Shown one piece after another: positions 34,391 to 62,660 of a stretch of DNA of 64,000 bases. The DNA lies in the IMG/VR virus record IMGVR_UViG_3300045988_154609, positions 94,285-158,284 of that record. One strand, written 5' to 3'. The first letter of the stretch is position 1. Every line of letters starts with the position of its first letter. Both the position numbers and the translations under genes were made by a program. The notes below the pieces were generated by a model, which did not search any database, was not told the DNA's origin, and saw only the letters and a list, made by a program, of their open reading frames with translations. Source of the stretch: a virus.

Positions 34391-34425
34391 ATATATATTA
34401 TATAATATTTTTTATAAAATATCAA
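34391..34425 (-). promoter_or_regulatory. conserved promoter box, downstream copy of a tandem pair
   Basis: Same about 45-bp motif as in 20 or more other intergenic regions. Confidence 0.55.
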
Positions 34426-34475
34426 TTAAGATATTTTATTGAGTATCGGAAAGGATTTTTAAAATCCTTTCCTTA

Positions 34476-34518
34476 ACTTTCTATATATATTATATAATAT
34501 TTTTTATAAAATATCAAT
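34476..34518 (-). promoter_or_regulatory. conserved promoter box, upstream copy of a tandem pair
   Basis: AACTTTCTATATATATTATATAATATTTTTTATAAAATATCAA, a near-identical duplicate of 34391-34425. Confidence 0.55.
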
Positions 34519-34742
34519 TAAATATCAATTTCTGCATCTAACATAAAATTTTCAGCCTTAATTTTTTCCCAAGCCTCTTCTCTTTTCTTTTTTCGATGAA
34601 ATATAGATTTAACTTTCATGACTTCTGATATTGCTTCTGCACTGATCATAGCATCAAGCATTGACCATTGCCCATCACAAGCTCGTTTATTGGCCCATTC
34701 AGAGAACTCATCAAATGTAACGTCTTTCATTTCTTTCTTCAT
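34518..34742 (-). CDS. hypothetical protein
   Basis: 74-aa ORF. Confidence 0.4.
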   Translation of the reverse strand: MKKEMKDVTFDEFSEWANKRACDGQWSMLDAMISAEAISEVMKVKSIFHRKKKREEAWEKIKAENFMLDAEIDI

Positions 34743-34744
34743 TT

Positions 34745-35923
34745 TTATCTCCTCTGCATTATTCCAAAAGGATTGTCACTATAATAGTCTCCTTCAATTT
34801 GCGGAGTGTATTCATTACAATGTGTAATAATGATTTTTTTAGAAAATCTTGTATCAAGTTTGACTTTTTCAAAATCATTATCGATTCGAGTAATTACATC
34901 ACTCTTTTTCATTACACCATATCTTAATCCACCCTGGAAATCATTATGTACATTTGTTTTATCAAACATCTCTGTATTGATTTCTTTTTTCTGAGCTTCT
35001 TGCTCAATAGGGCCAACCCCATGTCTGGTTACATATGAACGCATTACATAGCAAGCATCAACTGAAATGTCTTTTTTATCTGCTAAAATCTCAAAAGGAT
35101 ATGTTACTCCTGTGCGGGAAGTGGTATGCCAAACATCATCATAATAGAAATCAAGTCCTAATCCCTGACCATTCTCAAAAATAAAACTATCAAACTTATG
35201 ATAAAGATTGTCAAAAGTGATAATTTCATTTCTCTCAAGGAAAAATAATATATCACTTCTAAAATTACAAATTAAAGACTGTCTACCAACGGAATGTTTA
35301 TCAAAATATTCTCTGTAAGTAGTAATTTTATCAAGCTGTACTCCACGCTTAAAAAGAATTACAAGACAATCTCTCCAAATTTCTTCCATATGGAAAAGAT
35401 ATTCTTCATCTGTCCAGCTTGCAAAATCAGCAACTGTAAAATGAGTCTTCATTGTAGGATCGCCATATCTATCCTCAATAGCACACCAAGAGCCAAAGCC
35501 GCAAGAACCATATTCTCTTTCACCATTCTGCTCGGCAATCCAATTTTCTGTAATATGATCAATCATCATATCAAAAGGAGTAATTACTTTTGCTTCTGGA
35601 TCAACGTATCCTTTTAAATTCAAAGGAAATAAATGCTGTTCCAATAACTCATAATACTCTTTTGTATAAGTCATAGGATGAATAAAAAAGGTTTTCGCAA
35701 AAAAAGTTGGAACTCCTTCTGCGGTGCCGCTTCCAAAATGATGGTAGACATGCCGCAATTTAGTTGTATAATCAACTGTATGACCACGCTGAGCCGTTCC
35801 ATTGTGAAAGATTACTACTGGTTTTAAACCTCGATTAAGAGCATCTTCACAAAAATGATTTGTTACAAGACCTTTTCCTTCATCTCCAAAGTTTGCTCCA
35901 ATAACAATTTTACTTTCTTTCAT
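34745..35923 (-). CDS. divergent adenylosuccinate synthetase (PurA) family enzyme; candidate PurZ-like nucleotide-modifying enzyme
   Basis: VIGANFGDEGKG (PurA P-loop GDEGKGK), GTAQRGHTV (GHNAGHT His), FENGQGLGLD (Q224 region) and SYVTRHGVGP are present. The TTGRRRR loop is replaced by GGLRYGV. Length is 392 aa, shorter than cellular PurA. Confidence 0.7.
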   Translation of the reverse strand: MKESKIVIGANFGDEGKGLVTNHFCEDALNRGLKPVVIFHNGTAQRGHTVDYTTKLRHVYHHFGSGTAEGVPTFFAKTFFIHPMTYTKEYYELLEQHLFPLNLKGYVDPEAKVITPFDMMIDHITENWIAEQNGEREYGSCGFGSWCAIEDRYGDPTMKTHFTVADFASWTDEEYLFHMEEIWRDCLVILFKRGVQLDKITTYREYFDKHSVGRQSLICNFRSDILFFLERNEIITFDNLYHKFDSFIFENGQGLGLDFYYDDVWHTTSRTGVTYPFEILADKKDISVDACYVMRSYVTRHGVGPIEQEAQKKEINTEMFDKTNVHNDFQGGLRYGVMKKSDVITRIDNDFEKVKLDTRFSKKIIITHCNEYTPQIEGDYYSDNPFGIMQRR

Positions 35924-35924
35924 T

Positions 35925-36236
35925 TTAGTCTAACCTTTCATCACAATATTTATCTACAAAAGTTTCAAAGCCCATTCTCGCACAAATTACATCAAGTTCA
36001 TCGGCTGTTTCTTTAACAGAGTCTTTAATAGAATAAATAATCCAATTATATTCCTGCTCAACAATTTCATCTTCATCATTTAACCCAAAAGATTCAGCAA
36101 CATTATAAGCCATTTCATAGCCATAATCATTGGCTTCTTCAATATCATCTACCTCTACAACTTGACAATTATAGATTCCATGTAATCCCTGATAAGTACC
36201 TTCTGTTGCATAAATATAAACTCTCATAAAAAACAC
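35925..36236 (-). CDS. small highly acidic protein (possible DNA mimic)
   Basis: About 100 aa, very D/E-rich, with its own promoter box and a strong SD. Confidence 0.4.
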   Translation of the reverse strand: MFFMRVYIYATEGTYQGLHGIYNCQVVEVDDIEEANDYGYEMAYNVAESFGLNDEDEIVEQEYNWIIYSIKDSVKETADELDVICARMGFETFVDKYCDERLD

Positions 36237-36244
36237 CTTCCTTA

Positions 36245-36286
36245 ATTTTCTATATATATTATATTATATTTTTAATAAAAAATCAA
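36245..36286 (-). promoter_or_regulatory. conserved promoter box
   Basis: aattttctatatatattatattatatttttaataaaaaatcaa. Confidence 0.55.
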
Positions 36287-36314
36287 AGGAGGACTATTAT
36301 CCTCCTTTTATATT

Positions 36315-37235
36315 TTAAATGTCCCAGCTCACTTCAGAAGAAGCTGTATCATTGTCATTAATATCAATTTTAACTGGACCAGTTTCAAAAGCTGTTCCTG
36401 TTTTACTTCCATGATTAATTACAATATCTGTAATAATCTTTGCAAGACCATTTAAACCAGATACAAAGTAATGGTCATTTCCTACAAGTTTTCTCCAAGA
36501 CTCATCAAAGTCTGGGTGTCTACTGCATAACCATTTATAAGAGCTTTCATTATCATCAATAGAGATATGGTAAACATCAAATTTTTCAAAAACTTCTTTC
36601 TGTAAATCTTCTGTTTCAACATCTCCCTGGAGAGAATCTCCAGTACATTCAGCTAATCCCCATTTTGGTAAATAAGGATTTGGCTTTTCATCTCCCATTG
36701 TAATGATAATGCCTTTCTGACCTCTGTTCCAGCAGTCAAGTTTACAATGATTTAATCCCATATACCAAGCGGCTGTATAAGACTCAAAACTATTACCACC
36801 ACCGCCGCCTTCAAAATACATCTTATCAAGCTGCTCTGCAATTCTAATATCAGATTCAAACTGAGACATCTGAATTGGCGCTCTGTCATAAGCAAGGTCT
36901 CCGATTCCCATTACACAGAACTCAACATCCTTAATAGAGTTGTCTGCATAAATATCAGTCATAATCTCATTCAGCTTCTTAGCAACCTGAACTGCGGCGC
37001 CGCCCATAGAACCAGTTACATCAAGTGCCAGAATAACTGGAACTGTATGCGGATGCTCCTCAGAATCGCAACATTCACGCATTACTCCTTTTGGATTTAA
37101 AGCTGCGTCAAGTTTACGAGATGTATAAAACTCCTGTGCTGAAAAAGCCATTGTATCAAACTCGTCAAGAGAAACTCCTCTTGAATGAGATGTATAATCA
37201 CTAAATGCTTTAGTTGTCCAACTTCCTCCACCCAT
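36315..37235 (-). CDS. von Willebrand factor A domain protein
   Basis: MIDAS motif LALDVTGSMGG. Translationally coupled to the upstream Met-rich ORF. Confidence 0.6.
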   Translation of the reverse strand: MGGGSWTTKAFSDYTSHSRGVSLDEFDTMAFSAQEFYTSRKLDAALNPKGVMRECCDSEEHPHTVPVILALDVTGSMGGAAVQVAKKLNEIMTDIYADNSIKDVEFCVMGIGDLAYDRAPIQMSQFESDIRIAEQLDKMYFEGGGGGNSFESYTAAWYMGLNHCKLDCWNRGQKGIIITMGDEKPNPYLPKWGLAECTGDSLQGDVETEDLQKEVFEKFDVYHISIDDNESSYKWLCSRHPDFDESWRKLVGNDHYFVSGLNGLAKIITDIVINHGSKTGTAFETGPVKIDINDNDTASSEVSWDI

Positions 37236-37996
37236 TAGTCTTCGTCCTCCTCATCATCATCTGTGCTAACTACCGAAGCATCACCAAAATCAAAAGCTCC
37301 CTCAAACATATTCTCAAACATGTTTCCGCCATTTCCCATCATCATAAACATCATAGGATTAATACCGCCCATGTTCATAGAACCGCCTGTGTTATTTCCA
37401 TTAAACATCTGGCTCATCATCATCATACTCATCATAGAAGACATAGAACCATTATCCTTAGTCATATTCATAAACGGACTGAAAATCTTACCATAGCAGT
37501 ATGTTTTTCCCATAAAGACATGATGCTCTGGAATAGTCTCCTGGATAGTGGAGTCTTTATAACTGAAAGTCTTGATAGAATTTTTTCCTACCTCAATGAC
37601 TGCTCTTGGCTCGTTATTAACCAGGATAATGTCACCAACAGCAACTTTAAATGTAGGAACTACCCAAAATGCTCCATCCATATCAAAAGCGAAATTATCG
37701 CAGTTTGTAAGTTTCATTGTCTTAACATTGAAAGTTTTGTAGCCATTCTGCACCTTAATGGCAATCTTACCATTAGCGCCCATTTTGCAATAACCTTTTG
37801 CTACTGGTTTAAACATTCCATTAAACATATTTCCAAAATCAAACATATTTTCTTCTTTCCTTTCCTTTAGCTTTTTTTCTGTATTTCTAACAATAGCCCA
37901 ATGATCCATTATATCACCTATATTTCTTAAAGCCTTATCTACAGCTTCTGAAAAGCTTGGATCATCAATATCAAAAGCATATCCATTTGTTATCAT
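37235..37996 (-). CDS. protein with Met/Gly/Asn-rich low-complexity C-terminal region
   Basis: C-terminal ...MSSMMSMMMMSQMFNGNNTGGSMNMGGINPMMFMMMGNGGNMFENMFE...DDDEEDED. Confidence 0.5.
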   Translation of the reverse strand: MITNGYAFDIDDPSFSEAVDKALRNIGDIMDHWAIVRNTEKKLKERKEENMFDFGNMFNGMFKPVAKGYCKMGANGKIAIKVQNGYKTFNVKTMKLTNCDNFAFDMDGAFWVVPTFKVAVGDIILVNNEPRAVIEVGKNSIKTFSYKDSTIQETIPEHHVFMGKTYCYGKIFSPFMNMTKDNGSMSSMMSMMMMSQMFNGNNTGGSMNMGGINPMMFMMMGNGGNMFENMFEGAFDFGDASVVSTDDDEEDED

Positions 37997-38053
37997 TTCT
38001 TTTACTTTCTATATATATTATATTATATTTTTTTTATTTTATCAATTTACATA

Positions 38054-38371
38054 TTACTTATCCTCATCATCGTAACAATAAAAATGTTCATCAGGATCTT
38101 TTCTTACAGCATCCATACATCCATTAGTAGCTTCAAGAGCTTGAACAGGAGTTAAATCTCCATATAAAGTCTGATACCATTTTGGATGATAACATTTAAG
38201 ATAAGCAGGATCGCTTACACAATCTTTATATCCTCTTGGGCATACCGGATTGTATGCCCGAAACTGAGAATACTGAGGTACTTCTGCATATATAGGATTT
38301 TCTCTGCATTTAATGCAAAGATCTTTTGGAGCTACACATTTATCACATCTTGTCATTTTATTAGTCCTCAA
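38054..38371 (-). CDS. Cys-rich hypothetical protein
   Basis: 105 aa with multiple CxxC motifs. Confidence 0.4.
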   Translation of the reverse strand: MRTNKMTRCDKCVAPKDLCIKCRENPIYAEVPQYSQFRAYNPVCPRGYKDCVSDPAYLKCYHPKWYQTLYGDLTPVQALEATNGCMDAVRKDPDEHFYCYDDEDK

Positions 38372-39116
38372 AAATGCTATTTACGTCAAATAATACATTT
38401 TGTTCCCAAGTATCCAAATCAATTAATGGTAAATTTCCTGTAAAAAAACATCCTCCATCAATATCAATTTTATGAGCTTTACCCGCAGAATCTTTGCAAT
38501 AGAAATATGCTCCAGGAGAAGCTTTCTTTCCGCTCATCTTACACATATACTCATAACAATAATGACCTAAAAGGGGAACTGGAGTGTGTCCATGAACAAA
38601 AATTACATTATCCATTCCACCTTTTTCATCCCATTCATCATCAAAATGCTCTCGATTCCAAATAAAATCATCTTCAAACTCTGGAAATCCTAAGTGCGGG
38701 CCAGGTGTAAAACCTGAATGAGATAAAATTACAACTTCTCCATTTTTATTATCATAACGATACCACTTAGGCAAGTTGTCGATAATATCAATGTATTTTC
38801 TATCACTTCCATCTGCTTTCCATTCATCAAAAGTAGATTGACCACCATTAGCACAATGAAGTCTTGTGCAATGCTTTATCCGCATAGAATCTGCAAACAT
38901 CTGTTCATGGTTGCCGCAGATTAAGAAGAAATGTTCAGAATCTTCAAGAACCTCTTTTAAAATTTTGAATCCTTCTGGACCCCTATCTACACAATCACCT
39001 AAAATGTAGCAAAAACTATTGTCTGCATATACAATATTTTTTACCATTTCCCATAAATCATACTGACCATGAAGATCAGAACAACAATATACATGACTCA
39101 TATTTTTACACCTCAT
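38361..39116 (-). CDS. PPP-family Ser/Thr phosphatase (lambda phosphatase-like)
   Basis: GDCVDRGPEG and GNHE motifs, with an N-terminal DLHG. Confidence 0.75.
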   Translation of the reverse strand: MRCKNMSHVYCCSDLHGQYDLWEMVKNIVYADNSFCYILGDCVDRGPEGFKILKEVLEDSEHFFLICGNHEQMFADSMRIKHCTRLHCANGGQSTFDEWKADGSDRKYIDIIDNLPKWYRYDNKNGEVVILSHSGFTPGPHLGFPEFEDDFIWNREHFDDEWDEKGGMDNVIFVHGHTPVPLLGHYCYEYMCKMSGKKASPGAYFYCKDSAGKAHKIDIDGGCFFTGNLPLIDLDTWEQNVLFDVNSIFED

Positions 39117-39145
39117 ATCTTTTATAATAATTATTTGTTGTTTAT

Positions 39146-39331
39146 TTAAAAGGATGTTACTAAAAGTCCTTCATTCTTTAATAAAGCAACAATTTCGTCT
39201 TCTGGAATTTCATACCATCCAGGATTTTGATACTGAAGAACTTGATAAGCTAAAGACTCTAAAGCGTCTTCCAATTCGCATCTATCACAACCACCAAATT
39301 CAATCATTTTTATTTTTCCTTTCTCTTTCAT
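39146..39331 (-). CDS. hypothetical protein; near-leaderless with respect to the upstream promoter box
   Basis: Its ATG lies about 11 nt after the TATAAT of the promoter box. Confidence 0.4.
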   Translation of the reverse strand: MKEKGKIKMIEFGGCDRCELEDALESLAYQVLQYQNPGWYEIPEDEIVALLKNEGLLVTSF

Positions 39332-39333
39332 TT

Positions 39334-39370
39334 GATATATATATTATATAATATTTTTTATAAAAAATCA
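39334..39370 (-). promoter_or_regulatory. conserved sigma70-like promoter box (TTGATT-N16-TATAAT on minus strand)
   Basis: Minus strand reads cattgaTTGATTttttataaaaaatattaTATAATatatatatcaaATG. Confidence 0.6.
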
Positions 39371-39547
39371 ATGCCCTATCTTTTTGATAGGGCATTACGT
39401 TAATAATGTATTATATTTAAAATAATTTGTGCGATCCCGCCAAAAATAAAACCTGTTATATAGATATGACTTGGCTCATTAAATTTAGTGCTTAAAATAG
39501 CACCTGTCACACAAACTACGATAAATAGAATAAAAAAGATAATATTT

Positions 39548-40087
39548 TTAATCCAATGTTTGAAAGTCAAAAGTGCCACCTCTTTCTTTCATTTCAGCCT
39601 GGTATACATTCCTATCATAAGATCCATGCGCACAGGCTGCAGTCATTGCTTTTTGATGACAAATATCACATCTACAAGATCCAACAGTACCAATACTTGT
39701 TGGATAAAACATATATGTATATCCGCCACCTGAGCAACCATGATATCCATGCGGGTTTCCATGAACCTCAGTATCATGTTTCTTTTTCCAATCTCTGATA
39801 GCTACACTTTCCTTCTCAGTAATCGGAAAACCTCTCCACATATCAGCCAATGCTGCATCTCTTTGTCTCTTCATATCCTGCATTTCTTTAGTTGTGTATG
39901 CTTCTTTTTCAAAATTATCTATCTTTTCTCTCAAATATTCAATAGTTTTCTGCTTGTCCAGAAGGTTGACTTTAATATTGTCAAGGTATTCATCAATAGT
40001 TTCTTCTCTATTTAAAATAGGGATAGAATGACTTAGAGACTTACCATCTTTAAATCTGAACATTGTTCCATCGGGACTATTAAACAT
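39548..40087 (-). CDS. Cys/His-rich hypothetical protein
   Basis: 179-aa ORF with a CSGGG...CRCDICH...CAHG motif. Confidence 0.45.
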   Translation of the reverse strand: MFNSPDGTMFRFKDGKSLSHSIPILNREETIDEYLDNIKVNLLDKQKTIEYLREKIDNFEKEAYTTKEMQDMKRQRDAALADMWRGFPITEKESVAIRDWKKKHDTEVHGNPHGYHGCSGGGYTYMFYPTSIGTVGSCRCDICHQKAMTAACAHGSYDRNVYQAEMKERGGTFDFQTLD

Positions 40088-40097
40088 ATATAACCTC

Positions 40098-40559
40098 CTA
40101 CTGGTTCAAAAGTTCAGTAAGAACTTTATTAATAAGTTTTCCATCTGCTTTGCCTTTAAGTTTAGGCATAATATTTTTCATAACCATACCTTTCATTTTT
40201 GGTCCAATAGGCTCAGTAACAACCTGAGTAAGCTCAATTAACTCTTCATTAATAAAAGCTCGAATTTCATCCTCTGTCATAAGAGTTGGAGCAAATTCTT
40301 TAATTACTTCAAGTCTATACTTATAAGATTCCAAAAGGTCTGTTCTTGCAGCAGGGCAAGTATCAATCATTTCCTGTACGGTTTTCTGCTCTTTTAAGAT
40401 AACTGCATCAACCATGTCTTCTGAAATGTTATTTCGGCAATTTTTATCAATAGCCGCCTTTTTAATAGCATCAACAAGACTGGAAATAACATCTTTTCGA
40501 GCCTTGTCTTTAGCCTTCATTGCGGTAACCATCTCTTTCATAACTGTATCAAGTGTCAT
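40098..40559 (-). CDS. GatB/YqeY-domain protein
   Basis: The overall pattern matches YqeY-like proteins (..LK.KDK.R..VI..L..AIK.A.ID... through ...MGKVMK..MPKLKGKADGKLI..VL.ELL). Confidence 0.55.
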   Translation of the reverse strand: MTLDTVMKEMVTAMKAKDKARKDVISSLVDAIKKAAIDKNCRNNISEDMVDAVILKEQKTVQEMIDTCPAARTDLLESYKYRLEVIKEFAPTLMTEDEIRAFINEELIELTQVVTEPIGPKMKGMVMKNIMPKLKGKADGKLINKVLTELLNQ

Positions 40560-40560
40560 T

Positions 40561-40857
40561 TTAATTCTCTCCTTTATAATATTCTTTTACAAAATCTTCT
40601 ACTGGTATAAAAGCTTTATAAGTTGACGATAATGTAACTAATTCTTTTACTCCTACAATCCCTGGAATATTTAAAAGTTCTTTAATTGCTAATGTTTCAT
40701 TCGGAAACTGTTGTCTTTCAATATGACATTCCAAATCATCTTCATTTAAATCTGGAATAAAAACATATCTCCAAGTATTAAACATATTATCTTTTGAAAT
40801 ACAAAGTTTTCGATATGAATTTTTATTATCTTTTGAAATATGTAATTCAAGAAACAT
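40561..40857 (-). CDS. hypothetical protein
   Basis: 98-aa ORF. Confidence 0.35.
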   Translation of the reverse strand: MFLELHISKDNKNSYRKLCISKDNMFNTWRYVFIPDLNEDDLECHIERQQFPNETLAIKELLNIPGIVGVKELVTLSSTYKAFIPVEDFVKEYYKGEN

Positions 40858-41111
40858 TATTTTCCTAACCTCTCTTCAAAAATAGTAATAAAATCTTCAA
40901 CGTTTCTCTTTGGAGAAGCTGTTAAAAGAATTTCTGTAATGTTTGGATATTTTCGTAAATCTCTAATAGCATCTAATTCTGATGCAAAAGTGCATTTACA
41001 AATATGATGCTTAGTAAGATTTATATAACGATATTTCTGGAGATTCTTATCAAAAAGAATCTCCACTTCCTGCGGATCTTTATCTGAATAAAAGATTTTA
41101 AAATGGAACAT
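40857..41111 (-). CDS. hypothetical protein
   Basis: 84-aa ORF. Confidence 0.35.
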   Translation of the reverse strand: MFHFKIFYSDKDPQEVEILFDKNLQKYRYINLTKHHICKCTFASELDAIRDLRKYPNITEILLTASPKRNVEDFITIFEERLGK

Positions 41112-41302
41112 TAATATTTCTCCTTTCTTAAAATCCTATCCATTTTTTGTCTGCGGTTATCCGTCCTTGCGGGCTTGCCACCTGGCTTAGCCCGATATGT
41201 TTTGCAAGTCTGGCAATGACCGTAGAAGTCAGCCTCTTTGCCCAAATCACATTTTCCGTTACATACATAATGAATACAAGCGATTTCTCGTGTCTTTGCC
41301 AT
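41111..41302 (-). CDS. small Cys-rich protein
   Basis: 63 aa, C.....CNGKC...C..C. Confidence 0.35.
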   Translation of the reverse strand: MAKTREIACIHYVCNGKCDLGKEADFYGHCQTCKTYRAKPGGKPARTDNRRQKMDRILRKEKY

Positions 41303-41533
41303 TTCCTTTACTCCTTTTTATTTATTTCTTAAAGTCATCTATAGTCATTATTAGATTCAAAATAAAACAAACTCCCCAACATATAGCACAAAAGATTGAA
41401 GTTCCAATCTTAAAATTTGTTGTAGCGAGTACAGCTTGTACTATAAAAAGAATACAAACTACTAAATCTAAAAGTGCTATTATAAGATATAAAAATCTCA
41501 TAGTATTTGCTCCTTTCTTAGAAGTTCCATTCC

Positions 41534-42715: not shown

Positions 42716-42772
42716 ACCTATTAATCTCCTTTATTTATTGTAAATATATTATATAAAAATTTTAAAAGTAAA

Positions 42773-43348
42773 TCAATTAAGGTCTGTTTCTTTCAAACAT
42801 TCGTGATAAATCTTAATGAGATTTTTCTTATTTAAAAGTGCCTTATATCCAACATTATGCTCTTCTCTCCATGCTAAACGAGATAATACTTTATCTATAA
42901 AAGCTTTAGTCGCAGGATGCATAGCAATAGGATTCTTAATCTTATTCTGCCACCACTTATATTCTCCTTGATATGTAAAATTTTTTCCCATATAAGCCCG
43001 TCCCGCACCTAAATAATCACAAAGTAGCTCCAAAAGATACTTGTCTGGCATTGGGAGTGCGGTGCCACCTTTATCGAAGTTATCCTGCCAGTACTCATAG
43101 TGGTGTCGATTCCGACCTTTATGATGCTGCCAAGCAAAGGACATTCCATTTTCCTCTTTACAAGCATCTATCGGAGAACGAGTCCCCTGCCAATATTTGA
43201 CACCTTCCCAAAATTCAACAGGAGAAAATTTGGATAAATCGTGTGTAATTCCCTGCTTATAAAGACCAATTTTAAAGCAGTATTTTCCTACCCAATATTT
43301 ATGTTTACATACCGTTTTTAAGTGTCCAAAAAAGTTTTTAATTTTCAT
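42773..43348 (-). CDS. hypothetical protein (possible HD-like motif ITHDLSKF)
   Basis: 191-aa ORF. Confidence 0.4.
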   Translation of the reverse strand: MKIKNFFGHLKTVCKHKYWVGKYCFKIGLYKQGITHDLSKFSPVEFWEGVKYWQGTRSPIDACKEENGMSFAWQHHKGRNRHHYEYWQDNFDKGGTALPMPDKYLLELLCDYLGAGRAYMGKNFTYQGEYKWWQNKIKNPIAMHPATKAFIDKVLSRLAWREEHNVGYKALLNKKNLIKIYHECLKETDLN

Positions 43349-43351
43349 ATT

Positions 43352-45105: not shown

Positions 45106-45149
45106 AACTTTCTATATATATTATATTATAATTTTAATAAAAAATCAAT
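45106..45149 (-). promoter_or_regulatory. conserved promoter box
   Basis: aactttctatatatattatattataattttaataaaaaatcaat. Confidence 0.55.
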
Positions 45150-45160
45150 AAAGGAAAAAC

Positions 45161-45949
45161 TTATTCAGTTTTTCCTTTATTAAAATTAGGAGATTTTCTA
45201 AAATAAGTTGGAAGTAAATAATTTTGATCATTCCATCTTTTCCATATCTCTTCTAAATCTTCGATTGCTTTAAAATATTGTTCAACATGCGGGCGCTCCA
45301 TTCTATCTGCGTGAAAGTGACCAAAAAGCCAAACACCCCAATTAATCTTATCTTTAAAAGAATCAAGCCAAACTTCCATAGAATCATCTACAGTAGACTG
45401 GTCAATCATAGATAAAAATAAGTCAGTTGGTTCCCAGCTTAATGGACAAGTATGAGTAAAAACAAAATCAAAACTTTGTCCCGCATACATTGCTTCAATA
45501 GCCTGCATTTCTGCTTCTGTTAATTGTTCGTTTGGATACCAAGTATAATGATTTTCAAGTCTATACCATTTATCCACAGAATAAGCTCCACCTATTACAA
45601 GTGTATTATGACCAAGAAAATCATAATTAGAGCCATCCATAAGATAATGGATATGAGGATAACCGGGTTCAATGAAAACATAATTCGCAACATCATCATC
45701 CCAAACCTCTTCAATGCCTTTAACATCTTCTGGACGAGCTTCATGATTTCCCCTTACCAAATAAAATGTACATCCATATTGCTCAAGTTGCATCTTAATA
45801 TCATGTCGCCTTGCCGCACTTTTATAAAAATTTACACCTGCATCTCCTAAGATAATAATACCAGTCTCTTTTGGATTTTGTATTTCAAGCCATGCAAAAC
45901 GATCCATACAGCCATGTGTATCTCCTGTTACAAAAAACTGTTTAATCAT
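45161..45949 (-). CDS. calcineurin-like metallophosphoesterase
   Basis: FFVTGDTHG, LGDAGVN and RGNHE motifs. Overlaps the downstream nucleotidyltransferase gene by 4 nt. Confidence 0.7.
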   Translation of the reverse strand: MIKQFFVTGDTHGCMDRFAWLEIQNPKETGIIILGDAGVNFYKSAARRHDIKMQLEQYGCTFYLVRGNHEARPEDVKGIEEVWDDDVANYVFIEPGYPHIHYLMDGSNYDFLGHNTLVIGGAYSVDKWYRLENHYTWYPNEQLTEAEMQAIEAMYAGQSFDFVFTHTCPLSWEPTDLFLSMIDQSTVDDSMEVWLDSFKDKINWGVWLFGHFHADRMERPHVEQYFKAIEDLEEIWKRWNDQNYLLPTYFRKSPNFNKGKTE

Positions 45950-46785: not shown

Positions 46786-46828
46786 AACTTTCTATATATA
46801 TTATAATAAATTTTTAATAAAAAATCAA
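46786..46828 (-). promoter_or_regulatory. conserved promoter box
   Basis: aactttctatatatattataataaatttttaataaaaaatcaa. Confidence 0.55.
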
Positions 46829-46859
46829 AAAAAGGGAGAAAGTATTTAAACTTTCTCCC

Positions 46860-47216
46860 TTAATCATCGGTTGCCCATTGTCCCTTTTTAACCAATCTTA
46901 CAAGTTCATAATCATGCTGGGTTGGTTCAACATAAAATTTATATTTCGCAGAAGCATATTCAGGAATATCAAAATGATGATTTGCGTCCCATACATAATC
47001 TAAACAATCAATAACAGCTTGTTGTTTATCTTTATCAGTTCCATTTGTATTTGCAGAAATATAAGCTAAAATTTCTTCTTCTTCACTTCCCCAATCATAA
47101 GATGGAAAAATTTGCATCTTTTCCGCAGGTTTAGGTCGAAAAAACATATTTAAAGATGTAAATAATACACATAAAAGAATAATTAAAAACATTTTTTCTT
47201 TCCAGTTAAAAATCAT
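46860..47216 (-). CDS. hypothetical protein with N-terminal TM/signal
   Basis: 118-aa ORF. Confidence 0.4.
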   Translation of the reverse strand: MIFNWKEKMFLIILLCVLFTSLNMFFRPKPAEKMQIFPSYDWGSEEEEILAYISANTNGTDKDKQQAVIDCLDYVWDANHHFDIPEYASAKYKFYVEPTQHDYELVRLVKKGQWATDD

Positions 47217-51096: not shown

Positions 51097-51140
51097 TTTT
51101 TCTATATATATTATATAATATTTTTTATAAAAAAACAAAT
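51097..51140 (-). promoter_or_regulatory. conserved promoter box
   Basis: ttttctatatatattatataatattttttataaaaaaacaaa. Confidence 0.55.
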
Positions 51141-51243: not shown

Positions 51244-51280
51244 ACAAAAAAATGGGAAGGTTATATATAATAACCTTCCC
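51244..51280 (-). terminator. rho-independent terminator
   Basis: Hairpin GGGAAGGTTAT-ATATAA-TAACCTTCCC followed on the minus strand by TTTTTTT. Confidence 0.65.
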
Positions 51281-51404
51281 ATAAAATTATAATAAAGATA
51301 AAACTACTTCTCGTAAATTACTAATGTTTGGAACATCTTTTGGAGTATATCTACTATTTTCTTGAGATAATAGTCTTACCCAAATTCTTACTAAGCCACT
51401 ATTT

Positions 51405-51704: not shown

Positions 51705-51706
51705 AT

Positions 51707-53258: not shown

Positions 53259-53326
53259 TAAATAAATATTTTTTAATCATTTTATAGCCTTAATAATGAC
53301 ACAAAAATTTTTACCAAAATATATTT

Positions 53327-54934: not shown

Positions 54935-55284
54935 TTTAGTAGTTTTTACTCCTTTCTTTTTAAATATCTTTCTCTAATATTATAAAGGATTAAAAATATA
55001 TTCTTTTTATTTTTGTCCAAAATAAAAAAGGAGTAAGAATAAATCTTACTCCTTAAATCTATTGTTATTATTTGATATAAGCATAACGCTCAGTATCAAG
55101 TTTCTCCATCATCAGGTCATATCCGTCTTTACCAGAAAGAATTGTTTCTATCATATTCAATAATCTTCATCATCAAGAGCTGCGATTGCCATTTCTAACG
55201 CTTCTTTAATTTTTTCTCTTTTATCTATATCTTCAAATGAAATATGAAGATTTTTTAACACCTCAATAGCTTCTTTAATTGTCA

Positions 55285-55485
55285 TTATTTTACCTCATAT
55301 TTAGAATCCATTAGCATTTCTAAAGTAATATTTTCTTTTTCCCAATATGGGATTCTAACTAATGGAATATTATTTGCGGCCGCCCAATCATTTTTCTTTT
55401 TGTCTCTTTCTTGTCTATCTTGTTCAAACGAAACGGACTGGAAGAAAATTTCCAGTCCGCATATTAATTTTCTTACTGGATACAA
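55285..55485 (-). CDS. hypothetical protein
   Basis: 66-aa ORF. Confidence 0.3.
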   Translation of the reverse strand: MYPVRKLICGLEIFFQSVSFEQDRQERDKKKNDWAAANNIPLVRIPYWEKENITLEMLMDSKYEVK

Positions 55486-56996
55486 GAGTATCTTTCAGAA
55501 TCGAGCTTCTTCATCATGAGAGAGTAGCCATCTTCTCCAGAGAGAATTTCTTCTACCATCGTCATTGAGAATCCAGATACATAGGAGAATCTTCCGCCAA
55601 GGGCTGGAATGTTATTCTGTCTTGCATCAAGATTCCAGAAGATTACTTTTGGTAATTCATAGCCATAAGCCATCCACTTCTGAGCAATGTTCTCAAGCAG
55701 AGTATTGATTTCACCAATACCACCGGTAATACGGTTTCCATAGCTCCAACGCTCTCTGGAAGGACGTCCAAAGGACATACAACCATTAAACTCCATATCA
55801 GAGAAGATATAAAGAGTTTTTGGCATCTCAGAAGCAGGAACTTTATTTTTAAGAGCGACGTTTAACATAAGGTCAAAAGTTGCCTCAATGTTTGTGCTTC
55901 CACCCCAGTCGGCAGAACGTGCTCTCTGGAATTTATCATAAATATCTACTCCATCGAATCTAACAAACTGAGGATTGCTGGAGAATGTGATGAAATGGTT
56001 CTGGAAAGGACCTTTACCACGCTCTGCGATATAAGCACCCATAGATACTGCTGCATTCATTGGAGTACCACTCATAGAGCCAGATACATCGACGATTGCA
56101 ATTCCGTTCTCCTCACGACCATTGTAGTAGTCTTTAAGGTTTGCCCAATATTTATCCCACATCAAACGCTCAGTCTGAGTTGGAGTACCGTAGTATCCAC
56201 CATAACCAAAAATCTGACTTGCGATATCTACTGGATTCAGGACTGCCGCATTAACAGTCTTAGTTTCATCCTTAGCAAAGTCCGCATAAGTCTGTGCTCC
56301 AGCCTTTGCACGCTCAATGTCGTGTCTTGCGAAAGCGTTCTTATACTTCATACCTGCTTTAGATGGAATCTTATCGAACTCAATTTCATCCCAACGATTC
56401 TCAGACATTAAACGCTCAAGAACGTTAATACGAGCACGAAGGATAGAAAGAGTCTTACGATACTGCTTTGCAGTCATTCCAAAATATTTACGAGTTACTT
56501 TTCCAAGTCTGCGAGACTCATGAGAAGAAGTATTCTCAGATTTCAGCCATTTTGCAAGCAGAGATGGAGTTTTGCACTGAACATCAAGTGCAAGCTGGTC
56601 TTTCATAATCTTCAGAGCATCTCCCTCAAGAGCTGTTCCTACGAATACATACAAGTCATCCCAACGACCAAACTCTGGTACATGAATCAAGTTTCTACGT
56701 ACCGCTTCTTTATCGACAGCAACCAGATCTTTGATTGCTACACGGAAAAATCTACGCTCACCCTGTCCACCACGCACGTCACGCAGATAGAACAAACATT
56801 TCAGAGCGTAAACAGGATTCTCTCTGAAAGCATTTCTTACAAGTGTTTTTACATCATCATCGCTTCTGTTACGATATGCTCCACCAAGTGCGAACATATC
56901 CAACAAATCTGACTTAGTTGTCTTATGTGTAATAGCACCATTTTCAGTTGTTGTGAAGTTTGTAGCTGCTTTCATTCCATTCATAAAACTATTCAT
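55473..56996 (-). CDS. TROVE/Ro60-like protein with C-terminal vWA domain
   Basis: N-terminal helical domain (...YALKCLFYLRDVRGGQGERRFFR...), then a vWA MIDAS motif IVDVSGSMSG in the C-terminal half. Domain order matches Ro60/Rsr. Confidence 0.55.
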   Translation of the reverse strand: MNSFMNGMKAATNFTTTENGAITHKTTKSDLLDMFALGGAYRNRSDDDVKTLVRNAFRENPVYALKCLFYLRDVRGGQGERRFFRVAIKDLVAVDKEAVRRNLIHVPEFGRWDDLYVFVGTALEGDALKIMKDQLALDVQCKTPSLLAKWLKSENTSSHESRRLGKVTRKYFGMTAKQYRKTLSILRARINVLERLMSENRWDEIEFDKIPSKAGMKYKNAFARHDIERAKAGAQTYADFAKDETKTVNAAVLNPVDIASQIFGYGGYYGTPTQTERLMWDKYWANLKDYYNGREENGIAIVDVSGSMSGTPMNAAVSMGAYIAERGKGPFQNHFITFSSNPQFVRFDGVDIYDKFQRARSADWGGSTNIEATFDLMLNVALKNKVPASEMPKTLYIFSDMEFNGCMSFGRPSRERWSYGNRITGGIGEINTLLENIAQKWMAYGYELPKVIFWNLDARQNNIPALGGRFSYVSGFSMTMVEEILSGEDGYSLMMKKLDSERYSCIQ

Positions 56997-57256
56997 AGAT
57001 AAAATCTCCTTTTTCTCTTAACCTTGTTACAAGGTCGTAATTGATTTTTAACAAGATCCTTTTTGGTTAGAGCGTTTTAATTTTTCCCACTTAAACTACA
57101 GAATTACTTCTGACTGGATATGGACCAGCATTCCCTTTACTTTCGTTTATACCTACCACAGTATAAAAATATTTTTTTTTAGCTGTAAGAACCTTTCTTT
57201 ATCTTACATATATATTATATTATATTTTTATTTAAAAATCAATTAAGATTTTTAAG

Positions 57257-57910: not shown

Positions 57911-58191
57911 AGGCATAATAATCATCCTTTTTCAAAAATATGTTTTATTCTCATATAATAAAATATTTGCTTGAATTTAATCAACGATTGCTGTTTATGC
58001 CTTAATGTAAATTATAAAACCATTAAAAATTAAATAGATGCTTCTTTTTACTAATACTGCTTTATATATCAAGAGCCCAGCCTATTTAGTCTACTGAGAA
58101 GCATTGCATCATCATATTTTAATATGTATGTAATTTTATTAATAATATCCATTTAAAGATATAAATTATTTTGCAGTTTACGGCTCTTTAG

Positions 58192-58263
58192 AGCGGATAA
58201 CGGGATTTGAACCCGTGACACATGCTTGGAAGGCACGTATGTTGCCAACTACACCACACCCGC
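58192..58263 (-). tRNA. tRNA-Gly (TCC)
   Basis: Acceptor GCGGGTG/TATCCGC (two GU pairs), anticodon stem CGTGC/GCATG with loop CTTCCAA, T-arm ACGGG-TTCAAAT-CCCGT. Confidence 0.75.
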
Positions 58264-58373
58264 ATATTTAGCAAATGTTTAAAACATTTGCTATTTTTAA
58301 GAGGAAATTTAAAAAGAGGAAAGTTCTTTAACTTTCTATATTTATTATATCAAAAAATTTTATAAAAATCAAA

Positions 58374-58884: not shown

Positions 58885-59511
58885 TTATAATAATTCGCCT
58901 AATCGAATATTATATTTAGCAATAATTTCATTTGCTCTTGTATAATTTCCGCCTTTTGCAGCTAAACCTAACTTCAAAAGAGCTTGACGAATATTTTTTG
59001 AAGTTTGAAGTGCTTGAACAAAATCTTCATCTGGAACAGCATTTCTTTTTTCTTTTTCAACAGAAATATTTTTATTTCTATAATTCTCTGTTTGAGCATG
59101 ACAATTTGGACATAATAATTGAAGGTTTTCTAATACATTATTTAATCTATCTCCATCCATATGATGAACTTCCAAAGGAATTAATTGCCCTTGCCATTCT
59201 GTATTGCCACATTTTTCACATTTATGACCTCTTAAATGAATAAGATGATTTTTCATTTTTTCAGATTTAATAGCTTTGCCATAAACAAAATCAGATTGGT
59301 CATCTAATTTTTTAATAGCTTCAGAACTTCCGTTTAAATCTAAAAAATGAGAAGTATCAAAATTATAATACTCAATCATTTGTCTTATTGCTAAAGCTCC
59401 AGAGCCACTTTTTTCTGCATATCCACATAAAGATGCTACTTGAGCAATAGAAGTTGATTGTTCTACAAATTCTTTTAATTGCTCTTTACTAAAATTTTCC
59501 CATTTCTTCAT
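58885..59511 (-). CDS. HNH endonuclease
   Basis: HHMDGDRLNNVLENLQLLCPNCHAQTE, the HNH/His-Me motif. Confidence 0.7.
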   Translation of the reverse strand: MKKWENFSKEQLKEFVEQSTSIAQVASLCGYAEKSGSGALAIRQMIEYYNFDTSHFLDLNGSSEAIKKLDDQSDFVYGKAIKSEKMKNHLIHLRGHKCEKCGNTEWQGQLIPLEVHHMDGDRLNNVLENLQLLCPNCHAQTENYRNKNISVEKEKRNAVPDEDFVQALQTSKNIRQALLKLGLAAKGGNYTRANEIIAKYNIRLGELL

Positions 59512-59796
59512 AACTATTCTCCTTTTTAAGTTTTTTCGTTCTATTCTAAATAAAATTTAACTTAAAACTTTTAACTTAAAAAGTCCAAAATTTTTTTAAT
59601 ACTCCTCACACTCCGGTGAGGAGTTTATCTTGAATAGTTTATCAAGACACTTTATTTTTCATTTGAGGGATTTGAACCCTCTAAAAATCATTCACAACAC
59701 AATTTTATTATCCATTTTCTTTAATTGCTGAGAAAGTGTCTTTTTTAATTTATATATAAATTATAACATATATTTTTTTTAAAAGCAAATTTTTAT

Positions 59797-60915
59797 TTAA
59801 AGAGCATAATGAAGATTTTTTGCTCCAGCTCTACGGAGAGAAATATAATCTACCTCTCTTTCCTGACGTTTTTTAAGAGCCGCAATTTCTTCATCATTAT
59901 CATCATAGTATTTAGGCAACCAGTTAAGACTAACCTTTTTACCATCAATAATCATGCCGCCCCTATCATAATCATAGGCTATATCGCCAGATTCAAATGA
60001 AGCATAAAAATTAAAACCATTCTCATCATAGCAATCCATGGTAATAGTCTCTTCTTCAAATAAATCAAGATAAACAGTTCTTTTAACATGTCCACCATCT
60101 TTAAAATAAAGAATTGCGTTATAAGTTTCTTTTTCAATACGAATGATATTTAAGTCTTTAATTGCATCTTCGAAGGTAGAGCCAAGAGTAAGCTCAAAAG
60201 CGATTGCCCGCAAACAGTCATAATTAAGATTAACCTTGTGACTAAATGCAATTACTTTATTAATTTCACTATACATACACTCTGGAACCTGATCTTCAAG
60301 ATAAGATTTTACTTCCATATCTGTTGGATATTCAAAGCGAATGTGATAATGAAAACGACCAGGTCTATTGACAAGATAGTCATTCAATCCTCTTAACTCA
60401 TTACAAGTAATTACAAAAAGTTTCTTTCCTTGACTTAATCCATCAAAAAGTGTAAGCATTTCTGTCTGCGGATCGTCGATAGAATTTGATTCATCTCTTT
60501 TGCCAGAAAATGTTTTATCAAACTCATCGAAAAGAACTACAACTTCCTGCTGGATTGAAGAAAGAAAATCCGCAATTCCTGGATAGTAACAATTCACAAT
60601 AATAAGTGGATAGCCTTCTTCTATACCCCTTGCCGCTAGTAATTTAGCAAAAAGAGATTTTCCAATGCCCTTATCGCCAGATAAAATTACGCCAAGATTT
60701 CTATTAACAAGTTTGAAAGAACCTAATACCTTCTGGACTTTCTGAAGATGAACTCCATAAATCTTTTCAGAGATTTTAATATCATCATATTTAGTTAAAT
60801 AGAATCCTGCTTGCGGATTAAAATCTACCTGATAACACTGGGCAGGTAATTTATCTGAAGTTTGAACACTGTTGTCATAAATTCTATAAATACTTCCTGT
60901 GTTTACAATTTGCAT
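59797..60915 (-). CDS. AAA+ ATPase
   Basis: Walker A GDKGIGKS, Walker B VVLFDEFD, and the sensor region LVNRPGRFHYHIRFEYP typical of classical AAA proteins. Confidence 0.6.
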   Translation of the reverse strand: MQIVNTGSIYRIYDNSVQTSDKLPAQCYQVDFNPQAGFYLTKYDDIKISEKIYGVHLQKVQKVLGSFKLVNRNLGVILSGDKGIGKSLFAKLLAARGIEEGYPLIIVNCYYPGIADFLSSIQQEVVVLFDEFDKTFSGKRDESNSIDDPQTEMLTLFDGLSQGKKLFVITCNELRGLNDYLVNRPGRFHYHIRFEYPTDMEVKSYLEDQVPECMYSEINKVIAFSHKVNLNYDCLRAIAFELTLGSTFEDAIKDLNIIRIEKETYNAILYFKDGGHVKRTVYLDLFEEETITMDCYDENGFNFYASFESGDIAYDYDRGGMIIDGKKVSLNWLPKYYDDNDEEIAALKKRQEREVDYISLRRAGAKNLHYAL

Positions 60916-60932
60916 TTATTTATCATTCTCTC

Positions 60933-60982
60933 TTTCTTTATCTTATAAATATATTATATAATATTTTTAAAATAAAATCAAT
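60933..60982 (-). promoter_or_regulatory. conserved promoter box
   Basis: tttctttatcttataaatatattatataatatttttaaaataaaatcaa. Confidence 0.55.
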
Positions 60983-61610
60983 TTACCATCCATTGTTTTG
61001 GAAATCCATCTTCATGAACAACTCGCATTTGTTCTTCATTGTTATACCAATCTCCAATAGGCAAATGTTTTTCATAATCAGTTGAAAAATTCTGCCATAA
61101 TTCTTTCCATATATATTCATCATTAATGCGGAAATCACCATTAAAATTATCAATAATTTCCTTTCCTTTTAAGAAACTTTGAAAATCATTTTCAAAAATA
61201 ATGATTCCACCATTCGCACTATGAGGAGGATGTGCGGCGGGGTAAGCACTACCCGCAGGAAAATCTAAATAATGATCACAGTTTTTAATAAAGTATATAT
61301 CTGAATCAACTAAGCATAATTTGATTCCTACTGGCACTTGAAAAGCATAAATTTTATTTATTGTATATTTAATCCTTTCATCTCTGTCTAAATTAGGAAC
61401 GTTTAAAAGATTAAAATTTGCAATAAAAACATCTTTTTCAGGAAAGATTTTTTTTATATTATCTATATTTATGTTGCTAGCTAATAAAATAAAAAAATCT
61501 TTTTGATAAATACTATTGACAGTTTTTAAGCTGTCATATAAACGTCTTGCTCCTAAAGCATAATCTTCAGTAGCTAACATTGTTCCGAACATCTTTTTCA
61601 TATTTATCAT
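60978..61610 (-). CDS. hypothetical protein, possible nucleotide-sugar glycosyltransferase (DxD motif LVDSDIYF)
   Basis: 210-aa ORF. The assignment is weak. Confidence 0.35.
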   Translation of the reverse strand: MINMKKMFGTMLATEDYALGARRLYDSLKTVNSIYQKDFFILLASNINIDNIKKIFPEKDVFIANFNLLNVPNLDRDERIKYTINKIYAFQVPVGIKLCLVDSDIYFIKNCDHYLDFPAGSAYPAAHPPHSANGGIIIFENDFQSFLKGKEIIDNFNGDFRINDEYIWKELWQNFSTDYEKHLPIGDWYNNEEQMRVVHEDGFPKQWMVN

Positions 61611-61910
61611 CTCCTTATTTTTCTATAATAATTATATAATATTTTTTATAAAAAATCAAATTGATTTTTTAATTAAAAATGTGGTATAATTATATATATT
61701 GAGGAGAATTTAAAAAATAGTTTGCTGGTTAATAAAAAAATCCAGTCTTAATAATAAGATTGGATTTTTTGTTTTTCTTTTCGTTCACGTTTATCTCTTT
61801 CGATTTTACGCATTTCTTTTAATCGTTTACAATTATTGCATCCATGATGGTTACAATTACAATCCCAACAGCCATCAGTATCTAACCAAAACCAATTTGG
61901 TGGTTGCGGC

Positions 61911-62192
61911 TTAGGCTTGCGAAAAATCTTTTTCTTGCTCATCCATACTCTCCCATCTGCGACGGTCCATTCGACACCAATTACGTTTGCCCGCACTATA
62001 ATGTCCTTTTGGATTTGTTTTAAATTGACCAGAGCAACATTCACATGAACAAAAAACCTTATTTTTACTATAGGCATGAAGATTTCTATACCATCCATCT
62101 TCCCATCCATATACTACTTCAGCAATATATCTTTTGTGTTTTGCTTTTTTGATAGATTGTTTTCTTCTAATTCCTCTGGCATTTCTTCGCAT
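61911..62192 (-). CDS. highly basic Cys/Trp-rich protein
   Basis: Strong RBS AGGAGG 6 nt upstream of its ATG. Confidence 0.45.
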   Translation of the reverse strand: MRRNARGIRRKQSIKKAKHKRYIAEVVYGWEDGWYRNLHAYSKNKVFCSCECCSGQFKTNPKGHYSAGKRNWCRMDRRRWESMDEQEKDFSQA

Positions 62193-62213
62193 ATGAAACC
62201 TCCTATATTAAAA

Positions 62214-62236
62214 ATATAAGGGGCATATGCCCCTTT
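62214..62236 (-). terminator. rho-independent terminator
   Basis: Palindrome AAGGGGCATATGCCCCTT followed on the minus strand by ATATTTTT. Confidence 0.55.
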
Positions 62237-62239
62237 ATA

Positions 62240-62590
62240 TTAAAGTGTTTTCTCAATAGCCGCAACATTGGCTTTTGCTACATTACAAGCCTCATTTGCG
62301 TCTAAAAGATATTCCTGCATTTTTGCAAGATGCTTCTGAGCTTCTGCAAGCTCCTGGAGTGCCTCAGAAACCTTACTTGTAGCTCTCTTAGCTCTTTTTT
62401 CTGCAATCTTTGCGTTACAACGGGCAATAGCCAGCTCAGTACCTTTCTCTATATCAAAGGTATCTCTTGGATCTGCCTTTGCATAGCCTTTTACATTTTT
62501 ACCTGCATAAGTACTTACTGCAATTACCTTCCGCTGATTCTGGTCTACAAATACCCGATATTTCTCTTTACCAAAAGTAGTTTTCATCAT
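62240..62590 (-). CDS. hypothetical coiled-coil protein
   Basis: 116-aa ORF. Confidence 0.45.
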   Translation of the reverse strand: MMKTTFGKEKYRVFVDQNQRKVIAVSTYAGKNVKGYAKADPRDTFDIEKGTELAIARCNAKIAEKRAKRATSKVSEALQELAEAQKHLAKMQEYLLDANEACNVAKANVAAIEKTL

Positions 62591-62610
62591 TTTTTAAATC
62601 TCCTTTATCT

Positions 62611-62660
62611 CTTATCTTTAATATAAATATATTATATAATATTTTTATTAAAAAATCAAA
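62611..62660 (-). promoter_or_regulatory. conserved promoter box immediately downstream of the tRNA-like element
   Basis: cttatctttaatataaatatattatataatatttttattaaaaaatcaaa. Confidence 0.55.

Follow-up and report, generated by a model that had tools for sequence, protein, structure and literature searches.

The 64,000-nucleotide stretch of DNA analysed here (the window; positions 94,285 to 158,284 of the IMG/VR virus record IMGVR_UViG_3300045988_154609) is a piece of a large phage genome whose accessory region, between 34 and 63 kb, carries 15 near-identical copies of a short promoter box. These boxes are probably strong promoters that are read by the RNA polymerase of the host with its housekeeping sigma factor (sigma A/sigma-70 family) and that drive early accessory genes. 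The 41-nt consensus (TTGATTTTTTATAAAAAATATTATATAATATATATAGAAAG) is made up of a -35 hexamer TTGATT, a 17-nt spacer, a -10 hexamer TATAAT, the sequence ATATAT and a predicted start region A(+1)GAAAG. The first evidence of the repeat came from an earlier note on this DNA, which described about 20 copies of a 45-bp element; the near-identical repeat is real, but it amounts to 15 strong copies of approximately 41 nt. From the 24 coordinates then listed, 14 correspond to true boxes, whereas nine in the 1-31 kb region (2309, 4690, 10630, 13305, 17520, 22226, 26050, 26285 and 30620) mark looser promoters, position 17225 holds no promoter on inspection and the box at 59748 had been missed. The spacing had been given as N16, a pattern that when taken literally yields only offset matches because the spacer measures 17 nt.

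Copies of the box were scored with a 41-nt position weight matrix (PWM) built from 13 copies, taking sites above 26 bits as strong and listing those above a cut-off of 8 bits. The 15 strong sites lie between 34.4 and 62.7 kb, all of them on the minus strand and in intergenic DNA, and the scan of the window found no plus-strand site of 20 bits or more. The chance level, estimated as the maximum across 50 second-order Markov simulations, is 9.5 bits. An independent repeat finder recovered the same family in 12-15 copies, and the pattern TTGNNN-17-TATAAT is present in all 15 boxes. The box always aims at a downstream minus-strand gene or RNA; the rule first described considered genes only. Assignment to the housekeeping (sigma-70/sigma A) promoter type, co-oriented with the genes and placed at the start of transcription units, is also supported by the sequence. 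In DNA this rich in AT, a generic sigma-70 scan finds hardly more sites than shuffled sequence does and shows no enrichment (117 against 106 expected; 94 against 83); significance is confined to the specific box. A literature search for the box sequence itself, within the searchable library, gave no match.

The phage belongs to a clade formed by a large set of uncultivated viral contigs of 110-240 kb, and its nearest relatives, at 93-97% nucleotide identity, are ~195 kb long. About 590 unique copies of the box occur in the 2.4 Mb of loci fetched from this clade, nearly all on the gene strand, and its spacer and start region are kept among phages with proteins that are only ~55% identical. In a motif-independent set of 80 loci, picked by RNA-ligase homology (53-98% amino-acid identity), 176 boxes share the strand of the genes and 10 have the opposite orientation, and at least one box is found in 58 of the 80. 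The rigidity of the spacing was evaluated on 465 unique family sites, for which only the -10 and the downstream sequence served as selection criteria: in 72% of these sites TTGA is placed upstream at a distance of exactly 17 nt, and for 96% the spacer length that fits best is 17. A TG at -15/-14 accompanies 33% of the sites with an imperfect -35 and 22% of those with a perfect one (p=0.02), a weak difference in a locus set partly chosen by a TG-less pattern that nonetheless has the direction of the compensation expected of sigma-70-type promoters.

Conservation well past the -35 and -10 hexamers, another claim of the earlier note, is confirmed. The 41 positions contain ~42 bits of information, of which the hexamers account for 16, the spacer for 14 and the 12 nt that follow the -10 for 12. 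Pairwise identity is 30% in the flanks and rises to 77% within the box; both estimates are inflated by PWM selection. When compared with ten close relatives, the boxes show 1.3% mismatches and the surrounding, mostly coding DNA 5.9%, that is 4.4-fold fewer in the boxes, although the relatives are mutually non-independent and the counts consequently pseudo-replicated. By element, the mismatches counted in the same comparison are 0/330 for the -10, 8/935 for the spacer, 5/330 for the -35 and 17/660 for the start region. The sequence of the spacer, beyond its mere length, appears to be under purifying selection. The UP-like element that had been suggested is not there: no positional information exists upstream of the -35, where the AT content is 0.71 compared with 0.66 in coding DNA, and the A/T tract that had been noted sits within the spacer.

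With ~44 protein open reading frames (ORFs) to serve, plus the four tRNAs of the window, the 15 boxes delimit units of 1-8 genes, about one box per three genes instead of the one promoter per gene first estimated. The boxes and their predicted targets are as follows.

62619..62659, minus strand: box of 45 PWM bits; drives a 116-aa ORF (62240-62590) with a 34-nt leader
61619..61659, minus strand: box of 46 bits; drives a 207-aa ORF (60978-61601) with a 23-nt leader
60941..60981, minus strand: box of 46 bits; drives an AAA ATPase ORF (59797-60915)
59748..59788, minus strand: weaker box of 27 bits with a -35 TTGCTT and a TG-extended -10; followed by ~150 nt of non-coding DNA and then by an HNH endonuclease gene
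58332..58372, minus strand: box of 35 bits with TG; drives tRNA-Gly (58191-58263), then tRNA-Lys, a 157-aa ORF and tRNA-Cys
57202..57242, minus strand: box of 46 bits; 211-nt leader, then a DUF2828/DUF7788 gene (55473-56996)
51098..51138, minus strand: box of 52 bits with a -35 TTGTTT; drives a PARG/macro gene (50266-51075) and the operon to 46860
46788..46828, minus strand: box of 49 bits; drives a nucleotidyltransferase (45946-46767) and a phosphoesterase (45161-45949)
45108..45148, minus strand: box of 52 bits; drives a 60-aa ORF, an RNase T-like exonuclease, cREC_REC and DUF5662 (45086 to 42773)
42736..42776, minus strand: box of 31 bits; drives an RNA ligase (41534-42715) and seven small genes up to the terminator at 39369-39397
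39331..39371, minus strand: box of 52 bits; drives a 53-aa ORF (39146-39307) with a 29-nt leader and two more genes
38005..38045, minus strand: box of 42 bits; drives ORFs 37235-37996 and 36315-37235 with a leader of ~14 nt, the shortest in the window
36246..36286, minus strand: box of 54 bits; drives a 100-aa ORF, a PurA-like gene (34745-35923) and a 74-aa ORF
34477..34517, minus strand: box of 53 bits; upstream half of a tandem pair, with no gene behind it
34385..34425, minus strand: box of 48 bits; downstream half of the tandem pair; drives a 113-aa ORF (34019-34360), an AAA_33 kinase and a phosphoesterase

Leaders are short and uniform. A start codon preceded by a Shine-Dalgarno sequence is located 23-34 nt past the predicted +1 in 10 of the 15 boxes, and clade-wide the leaders are mostly of 20-35 nt with a Shine-Dalgarno sequence (median 28 nt), none of them being shorter than 10 nt. 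The gene at 39146-39331 had been regarded as effectively leaderless. However, three of five close relatives carry a 1-nt indel that breaks the frame between the first and the second ATG of this ORF, so the gene starts at the second ATG, at 39307, with the Shine-Dalgarno sequence GAAAGGA and a 29-nt leader. Together with the lack of clade leaders below 10 nt, this indel rules out a leaderless mRNA. RNA rather than a nearby coding sequence follows three boxes, namely 58332 (tRNA-Gly), 59748 (~150 nt non-coding) and 57202 (211-nt leader).

The tandem pair displays an arrangement of its own. Between its two boxes (34426-34476), the leader of box 34477 is a copy of the leader of box 45108 as far as the Shine-Dalgarno sequence, and then runs into its own inverted repeat (GGAAAGGATTTT/AAAATCCTTTCC). 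The outcome is a gene-less promoter followed by a predicted hairpin (34448-34472) folding back on the Shine-Dalgarno sequence, and it is kept in all close relatives.

At the other end of the units, an intrinsic terminator is fused upstream in four of the 15 boxes, the T-run of the terminator being the TTGATTTTTT of the promoter. These four hairpins, and a fifth located further upstream of its box, are the following.

46832..46861, minus strand: terminator hairpin of 12 bp; its T-run extends into the -35/spacer of box 46788
45145..45183, minus strand: terminator hairpin of 17 bp; overlaps the -35 of box 45108
39369..39397, minus strand: terminator hairpin of 12 bp; overlaps the -35 of box 39331
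36285..36308, minus strand: terminator hairpin of 10 bp; abuts the -35 of box 36246
51252..51282, minus strand: terminator hairpin of 13 bp; 114 nt upstream of box 51098, at the edge of a variable block that contains a diversity-generating retroelement (DGR)

In the whole family, a hairpin of -12 kcal/mol or lower ending at most 4 nt from the -35 is found in 22% of 587 unique boxes, compared with 3.7% at random positions. The T count of the spacer is higher in boxes with a hairpin (p=1e-16), which indicates that the T-run exists in part because the fused terminator supplies its U-tract; hairpin-free boxes still hold 4.5 T out of 6.

Under the proposal that the boxes are promoters of the host polymerase, sigma region 4 would contact the -35 TTGA(T/C)(T/A), and the geometry would be set by the rigid 17-bp, A/T-only spacer, composed of a T-run, an A5-6 tract and TAT(W/G)A. 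The last of these is the Gram-positive 'TRTG' -16 region with the G being optional. The perfect TATAAT would be melted by sigma region 2, in a stretch free of G/C from -11 to +1, and transcription would start at the conserved A located 7 nt past the -10 to give mRNAs that begin with AGAAAG and carry a ~28-nt leader with a Shine-Dalgarno sequence. The 34-63 kb accessory region would in this way be split by its 15 boxes into short, individually driven units of 1-8 genes. In about a quarter of the boxes, fusion to the terminator of the previous unit, with the U-tract serving as TTGATTTTTT of the promoter, would insulate one unit from the next. Short uniform leaders and fused terminators would make each unit an insulated, strongly expressed module, and expression would take place straight after DNA entry with no need for a phage protein, as in the early, host-takeover class. 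Firmicute promoters with a +1A are not depressed when GTP falls, and it may be speculated that the +1A start is linked to the alarmone-hydrolase-like gene of the phage.

The genes behind the boxes point in the same direction. Most of the first genes behind 150 non-redundant clade boxes have no Pfam match (ORFans), and the remaining ones encode RNA ligase, TROVE-like DUF2828, gyrase, NAD ligase, PARG, Thg1, NAPRTase and similar proteins; no virion family is present among the 25 families listed for the genes behind these 150 boxes. In the window, the boxed region harbours an RNA-repair/tRNA set (33071-48453) that consists of an Rnl-type RNA ligase, an AAA_33 kinase, two metallophosphoesterases, a Thg1-like enzyme, a Pol-beta nucleotidyltransferase, an RNase T-like exonuclease and cREC_REC. 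It also contains a PARG/macro protein, a small HD (p)ppApp-hydrolase-like (alarmone) protein, a PurA-like protein and many ORFans. The RNA-repair set, the PARG/macro protein and the HD protein look like a counter-defence arsenal, and the gene content of the region is that expected of an early, host-takeover or counter-defence region. The PurA-like protein (34745-35923) is a divergent adenylosuccinate-synthetase-like protein (Pfam E=1e-18), and a sequence search of the PDB returned weak matches only, all of them to adenylosuccinate synthetase (best E = 3e-5). The idea of a Z-genome derived from this gene is not supported by the PDB matches, and the likeness of the small HD protein is to a (p)ppApp hydrolase and not to DatZ.

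Outside the accessory region, nine minus-strand sites between 2327 and 30675 constitute looser sigma-70-type promoters with a TG-extended -10 (ATGNTATAAT), located upstream of replication and lysis genes. They are related to the box but fall outside the near-identical family.

2327, 4698, 13304, 17537, 26058, 26290 and 30635 (start positions), minus strand: seven TG-type 41-mers of 10-30 bits
10661-10689 and 22234-22262, minus strand: two TG-type 29-mers, below the 8-bit listing cut-off and located by eye

Directly behind the TG-type promoter at 13304 lies a gene (12921-13304) whose small winged-helix (MarR-like) product may be a transcription regulator of the phage. Five of the nine TG-type promoters also have the A-tract in their spacer, which makes it a general trait of the promoters of this phage rather than a hallmark of the box. 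In this genome the box class is set apart by the absent TG, the T-run after the -35 and ATATATAGAAAG. Among relatives, the TG and TG-less flavours merge (TATGATATAATATATATAGAAA), and TG usage depends on the lineage, from 0/10 to 6/7 boxes per locus.

Several points weigh against the reading of the boxes as early promoters of the host polymerase. The anatomy of the box, its strand and position rules, the rigidity of its spacing, its conservation across the clade and the purifying selection on it, spacer included, are established by sequence comparison; the polymerase that reads it, the start site, the strength and the timing are deduced from the sequence. The preferred -35 is TTGATT (180/465), and the consensus TTGACA appears in only 26/465, a bias not predicted by pure selection for strength. 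The terminator U-tract, which has those bases in common with the -35, accounts for part of this preference but not for all of it, since hairpin-free boxes keep the T-run. Furthermore, the spacer and the 12 nt after the -10 hold as much information as the hexamers, which is more than known RNA polymerase contacts would evidently need. The examined DNA represents 64 kb of a genome of ~195 kb, and a phage sigma factor or polymerase may sit elsewhere. Finally, the host is probably a low-GC Firmicute, and the sole evidence for it is that in bacterial genome collections the box is found only in gut/rumen bins of metagenome-assembled genomes, with mixed labels that are mostly Clostridia, Bacilli, Oscillospiraceae and Lachnospiraceae.

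It might alternatively be proposed that the boxes are mobile regulatory cassettes similar to the PeSL (promoter-early stem-loop) elements of T4-like phages, their likeness being kept mainly by recombination or gene conversion and their copies serving as crossover points that shuffle accessory genes. The composite anatomy of terminator, promoter and Shine-Dalgarno sequence would fit this idea, and so would the variability of the region, in which seven indel/replacement events relative to the 93-97%-identity relatives fall within 33-60 kb. In one relative (L119), the -35 of box 51098 is the exact point at which homology to the window sets in, and the gene and terminator upstream of it are different ones. 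Moreover, the position of the boxes relative to the orthologous RNA ligase gene is not conserved, and paralogous boxes of one locus resemble each other slightly more than boxes of different loci do (80.2% versus 76.3%; 0/500 permutations), a likeness that points to mild lineage-specific homogenisation or host adaptation. Nevertheless, three of the seven events in the window are insertions of free-standing homing endonuclease genes (LAGLIDADG, HNH and GIY-YIG), a fourth is the DGR block, and none of these four is a box-to-box exchange. Homology breakpoints are 5-8-fold enriched at boxes over random positions, but the enrichment vanishes against other intergenic gaps (46/120 box gaps versus 75/182 box-free intergenic gaps of 70-400 nt, p=0.63), and thus reflects a mere preference for intergenic DNA. 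The boxes as PeSL-style recombination hot spots are accordingly rejected as a demonstrated role, and the explanation as a whole is unlikely.

A less probable alternative still, to which we give little credit, is that the box combines a promoter with an operator. In that case the spacer (T-run, A-tract and the near-palindrome ATTTTTTATAAAAAAT), ATATATAGAAAG or both would be bound by a clade-specific phage protein that shuts off, boosts or re-times all early units together, or that recognises the common 5' end of the mRNAs. Such a protein could account for the 14 bits of the spacer and the 12 bits of the downstream segment, for the protection of the spacer to the same extent as the hexamers in close relatives and for a -35 that has not been driven to TTGACA, and early promoters of T4 provide a precedent with 'additional regions of consensus' tied to a phage-modified polymerase (PMC2988021). 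The two halves of the spacer are unequally conserved, however, with 0.72-0.86 for the A-tract and 0.51-0.75 for the T-run, a poor fit to a dimeric operator. In addition, the T-run is partly due to the U-tract of the fused terminator, the A-tract recurs in the TG-type promoters of the replication region and no candidate binding protein emerged. If true, a phage factor acting on the spacer or on ATATATAGAAAG, either as DNA or as mRNA 5' end, would give this uncultivated gut/rumen clade a single-input early on/off regulon without a characterised counterpart in Firmicute phages.

Large phages often encode their own RNA polymerase or sigma factors, and the unusually extensive conservation of the box and the fact that only a third of the genome is in view would leave room for such a reader in place of the host housekeeping holoenzyme, but this is highly improbable considering that the bipartite TTGA-N19-TATAAT, the fixed 17-bp spacing of the hexamers and the optional TRTG are the housekeeping consensus, and that a Pfam scan of 61 ORFs of the window, which covers 64 kb of ~195 kb, matched none of them to a sigma or polymerase family. 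The bipartite -35/17/-10 architecture is not known from the promoters that phage polymerases or phage sigma factors use. Late promoters of Kayvirus, for instance, have no -35 (PMC7698491).

Regarding the rest of the window, its GC content is ~32% and the minus strand holds all substantial ORFs. These include genes for a PolIII-alpha-type polymerase, DnaB, a primase-like Toprim protein, gyrase A and B, an NAD-dependent ligase, RecJ, RNase H, an endolysin and several homing endonucleases. No megablast match to a cultured phage was obtained with 12 kb of the window as query. In a protein search, DnaB is at most 39% identical to that of any cultured phage, the nearest being SPbeta-like, Enterococcus and Staphylococcus phages and Herelleviridae. 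One window protein is contained verbatim in the public assembly Logan ERR209456.

A number of mobile or variable elements are interspersed with the boxes. A complete DGR occupies 51290-55480 on the minus strand, with its reverse transcriptase at 51707-52924, the template repeat at ~53128-53258, the variable repeat at ~53339-53469 and the target ORF at 53327-54934. The repeats, of 131 nt each, present ~30 differences, nearly all at an A of the template copy, and a 535-aa ORF without Pfam match has the variable repeat at its 3' end. Close relatives either lack the DGR block or have other DNA in its place, and no box promoter lies within it. None of the relatives has the LAGLIDADG gene (48621-49646) found beside the Thg1-like gene, and the adjoining 0.9 kb falls to 83% identity. 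An HNH gene (58885-59511) and tRNA-Leu are absent in relative L089, and relative L120 bears a GIY-YIG insertion (L120 ~9330-9930) 16 nt upstream of box 42736. Two more GIY-YIG genes are found in the replication region (25299-26048 and 15887-16879).

Some of the boxes are associated with candidate small RNAs. The 211-nt non-coding leader at 56997-57207 precedes the DUF2828/DUF7788 gene amid tRNA genes. We take the product of this gene to be a TROVE/Ro-like protein with a vWA domain, and proteins of this type often pair with a structured small RNA. Rfam gave no match for this leader or for the non-coding stretch after box 59748. In the latter (59600-59753), a motif resembling a tRNA T-arm (GAGGGTTCAAATCCCTC) occurs together with a GC-rich hairpin, and the stretch could represent either a small RNA or what is left of a tRNA. 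A 53-nt tRNA-like remnant (62660-62712) has acceptor, D-arm and T-arm but no anticodon arm. Its end coincides with the -35 of box 62619, and its score does not reach the tRNA threshold of Rfam (22.5 bits). The region has a single promoter-like site on the plus strand (61661-61690, TTGATT-18-TATAAT with TG), arranged back-to-back with box 61619, and its predicted transcript of ~80 nt (61661-61775) would end at a 16-bp bidirectional terminator (61735-61770), being a candidate small RNA as well. As to unusual proteins, three box-driven genes of relatives match major-vault-protein shoulder and repeat domains, and the window encodes an SPFH/flotillin-like 510-aa protein at 31224-32756.

As probable early promoters of the host polymerase, the boxes provide a very precise promoter model for a large clade of uncultivated gut/rumen phages, with which early transcription units can be marked out in phage genomes from metagenomes. 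Given that most box-driven genes are ORFans, the box also flags candidate host-takeover/anti-defence genes. On the practical side, it is a candidate strong and compact promoter-leader cassette for low-GC Firmicutes.

Among known systems, the early promoters of coliphage T5 (PN25) are very strong, are read by the host sigma factor, and combine A/T tracts in and around the spacer with class-specific conserved blocks past the -10. Both their host and their conserved blocks differ from those of the box. In the Herelleviridae, the Staphylococcus Kayvirus vB_SauM-515A1 has 58 early promoters with a -35 TTGACW, a 17-bp spacer, TRTGN and a -10 TATANT (PMC7698491), and SPO1's host-takeover module is promoter-rich (PMC6873191). 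The window resembles them in the dozens of strong sigma-70/sigma A promoters that serve many short early-gene units in a large Firmicute phage, and in the Rho-independent terminators that part these units (PMC7698491, PMC6873191). The box differs in being mostly TG-less in this genome, in its -35 TTGATT, in the UP region, which is not evident, and in the nearly invariant spacer and 12 nt after the -10. The relation to Herelleviridae is only distant, as the DnaB identity of at most 39% to any cultured phage indicates. Like the Pe promoters of T4, the box is a probable host-sigma promoter present in many copies, with 'additional regions of consensus' beyond the recognised elements, upstream of non-essential early genes that include RNA repair functions (PMC2988021). 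T4 Pe, however, has UP elements and TGn, neither of which is found in the box, and the host and phage lineages differ. The likeness to the PeSL of T4-like phages lies in the combination of a stem-loop terminator, a sigma-70-like promoter and a Shine-Dalgarno sequence with start codon, situated in variable regions before ORFans (PMC2839356, PMC4122927). Unlike in PeSL, the stem-loop is present in only ~22-27% of the boxes and always upstream of or overlapping the -35, and the role as recombination point that defines PeSL is not supported here. The boxes are thus a clean example of the strategy known from T4, SPO1 and K, with no new mechanism. The only point with some novelty is why the spacer and the start region are so tightly conserved, and selection on them raises a small, testable question about what, beyond the hexamers, wins the competition for the host polymerase.

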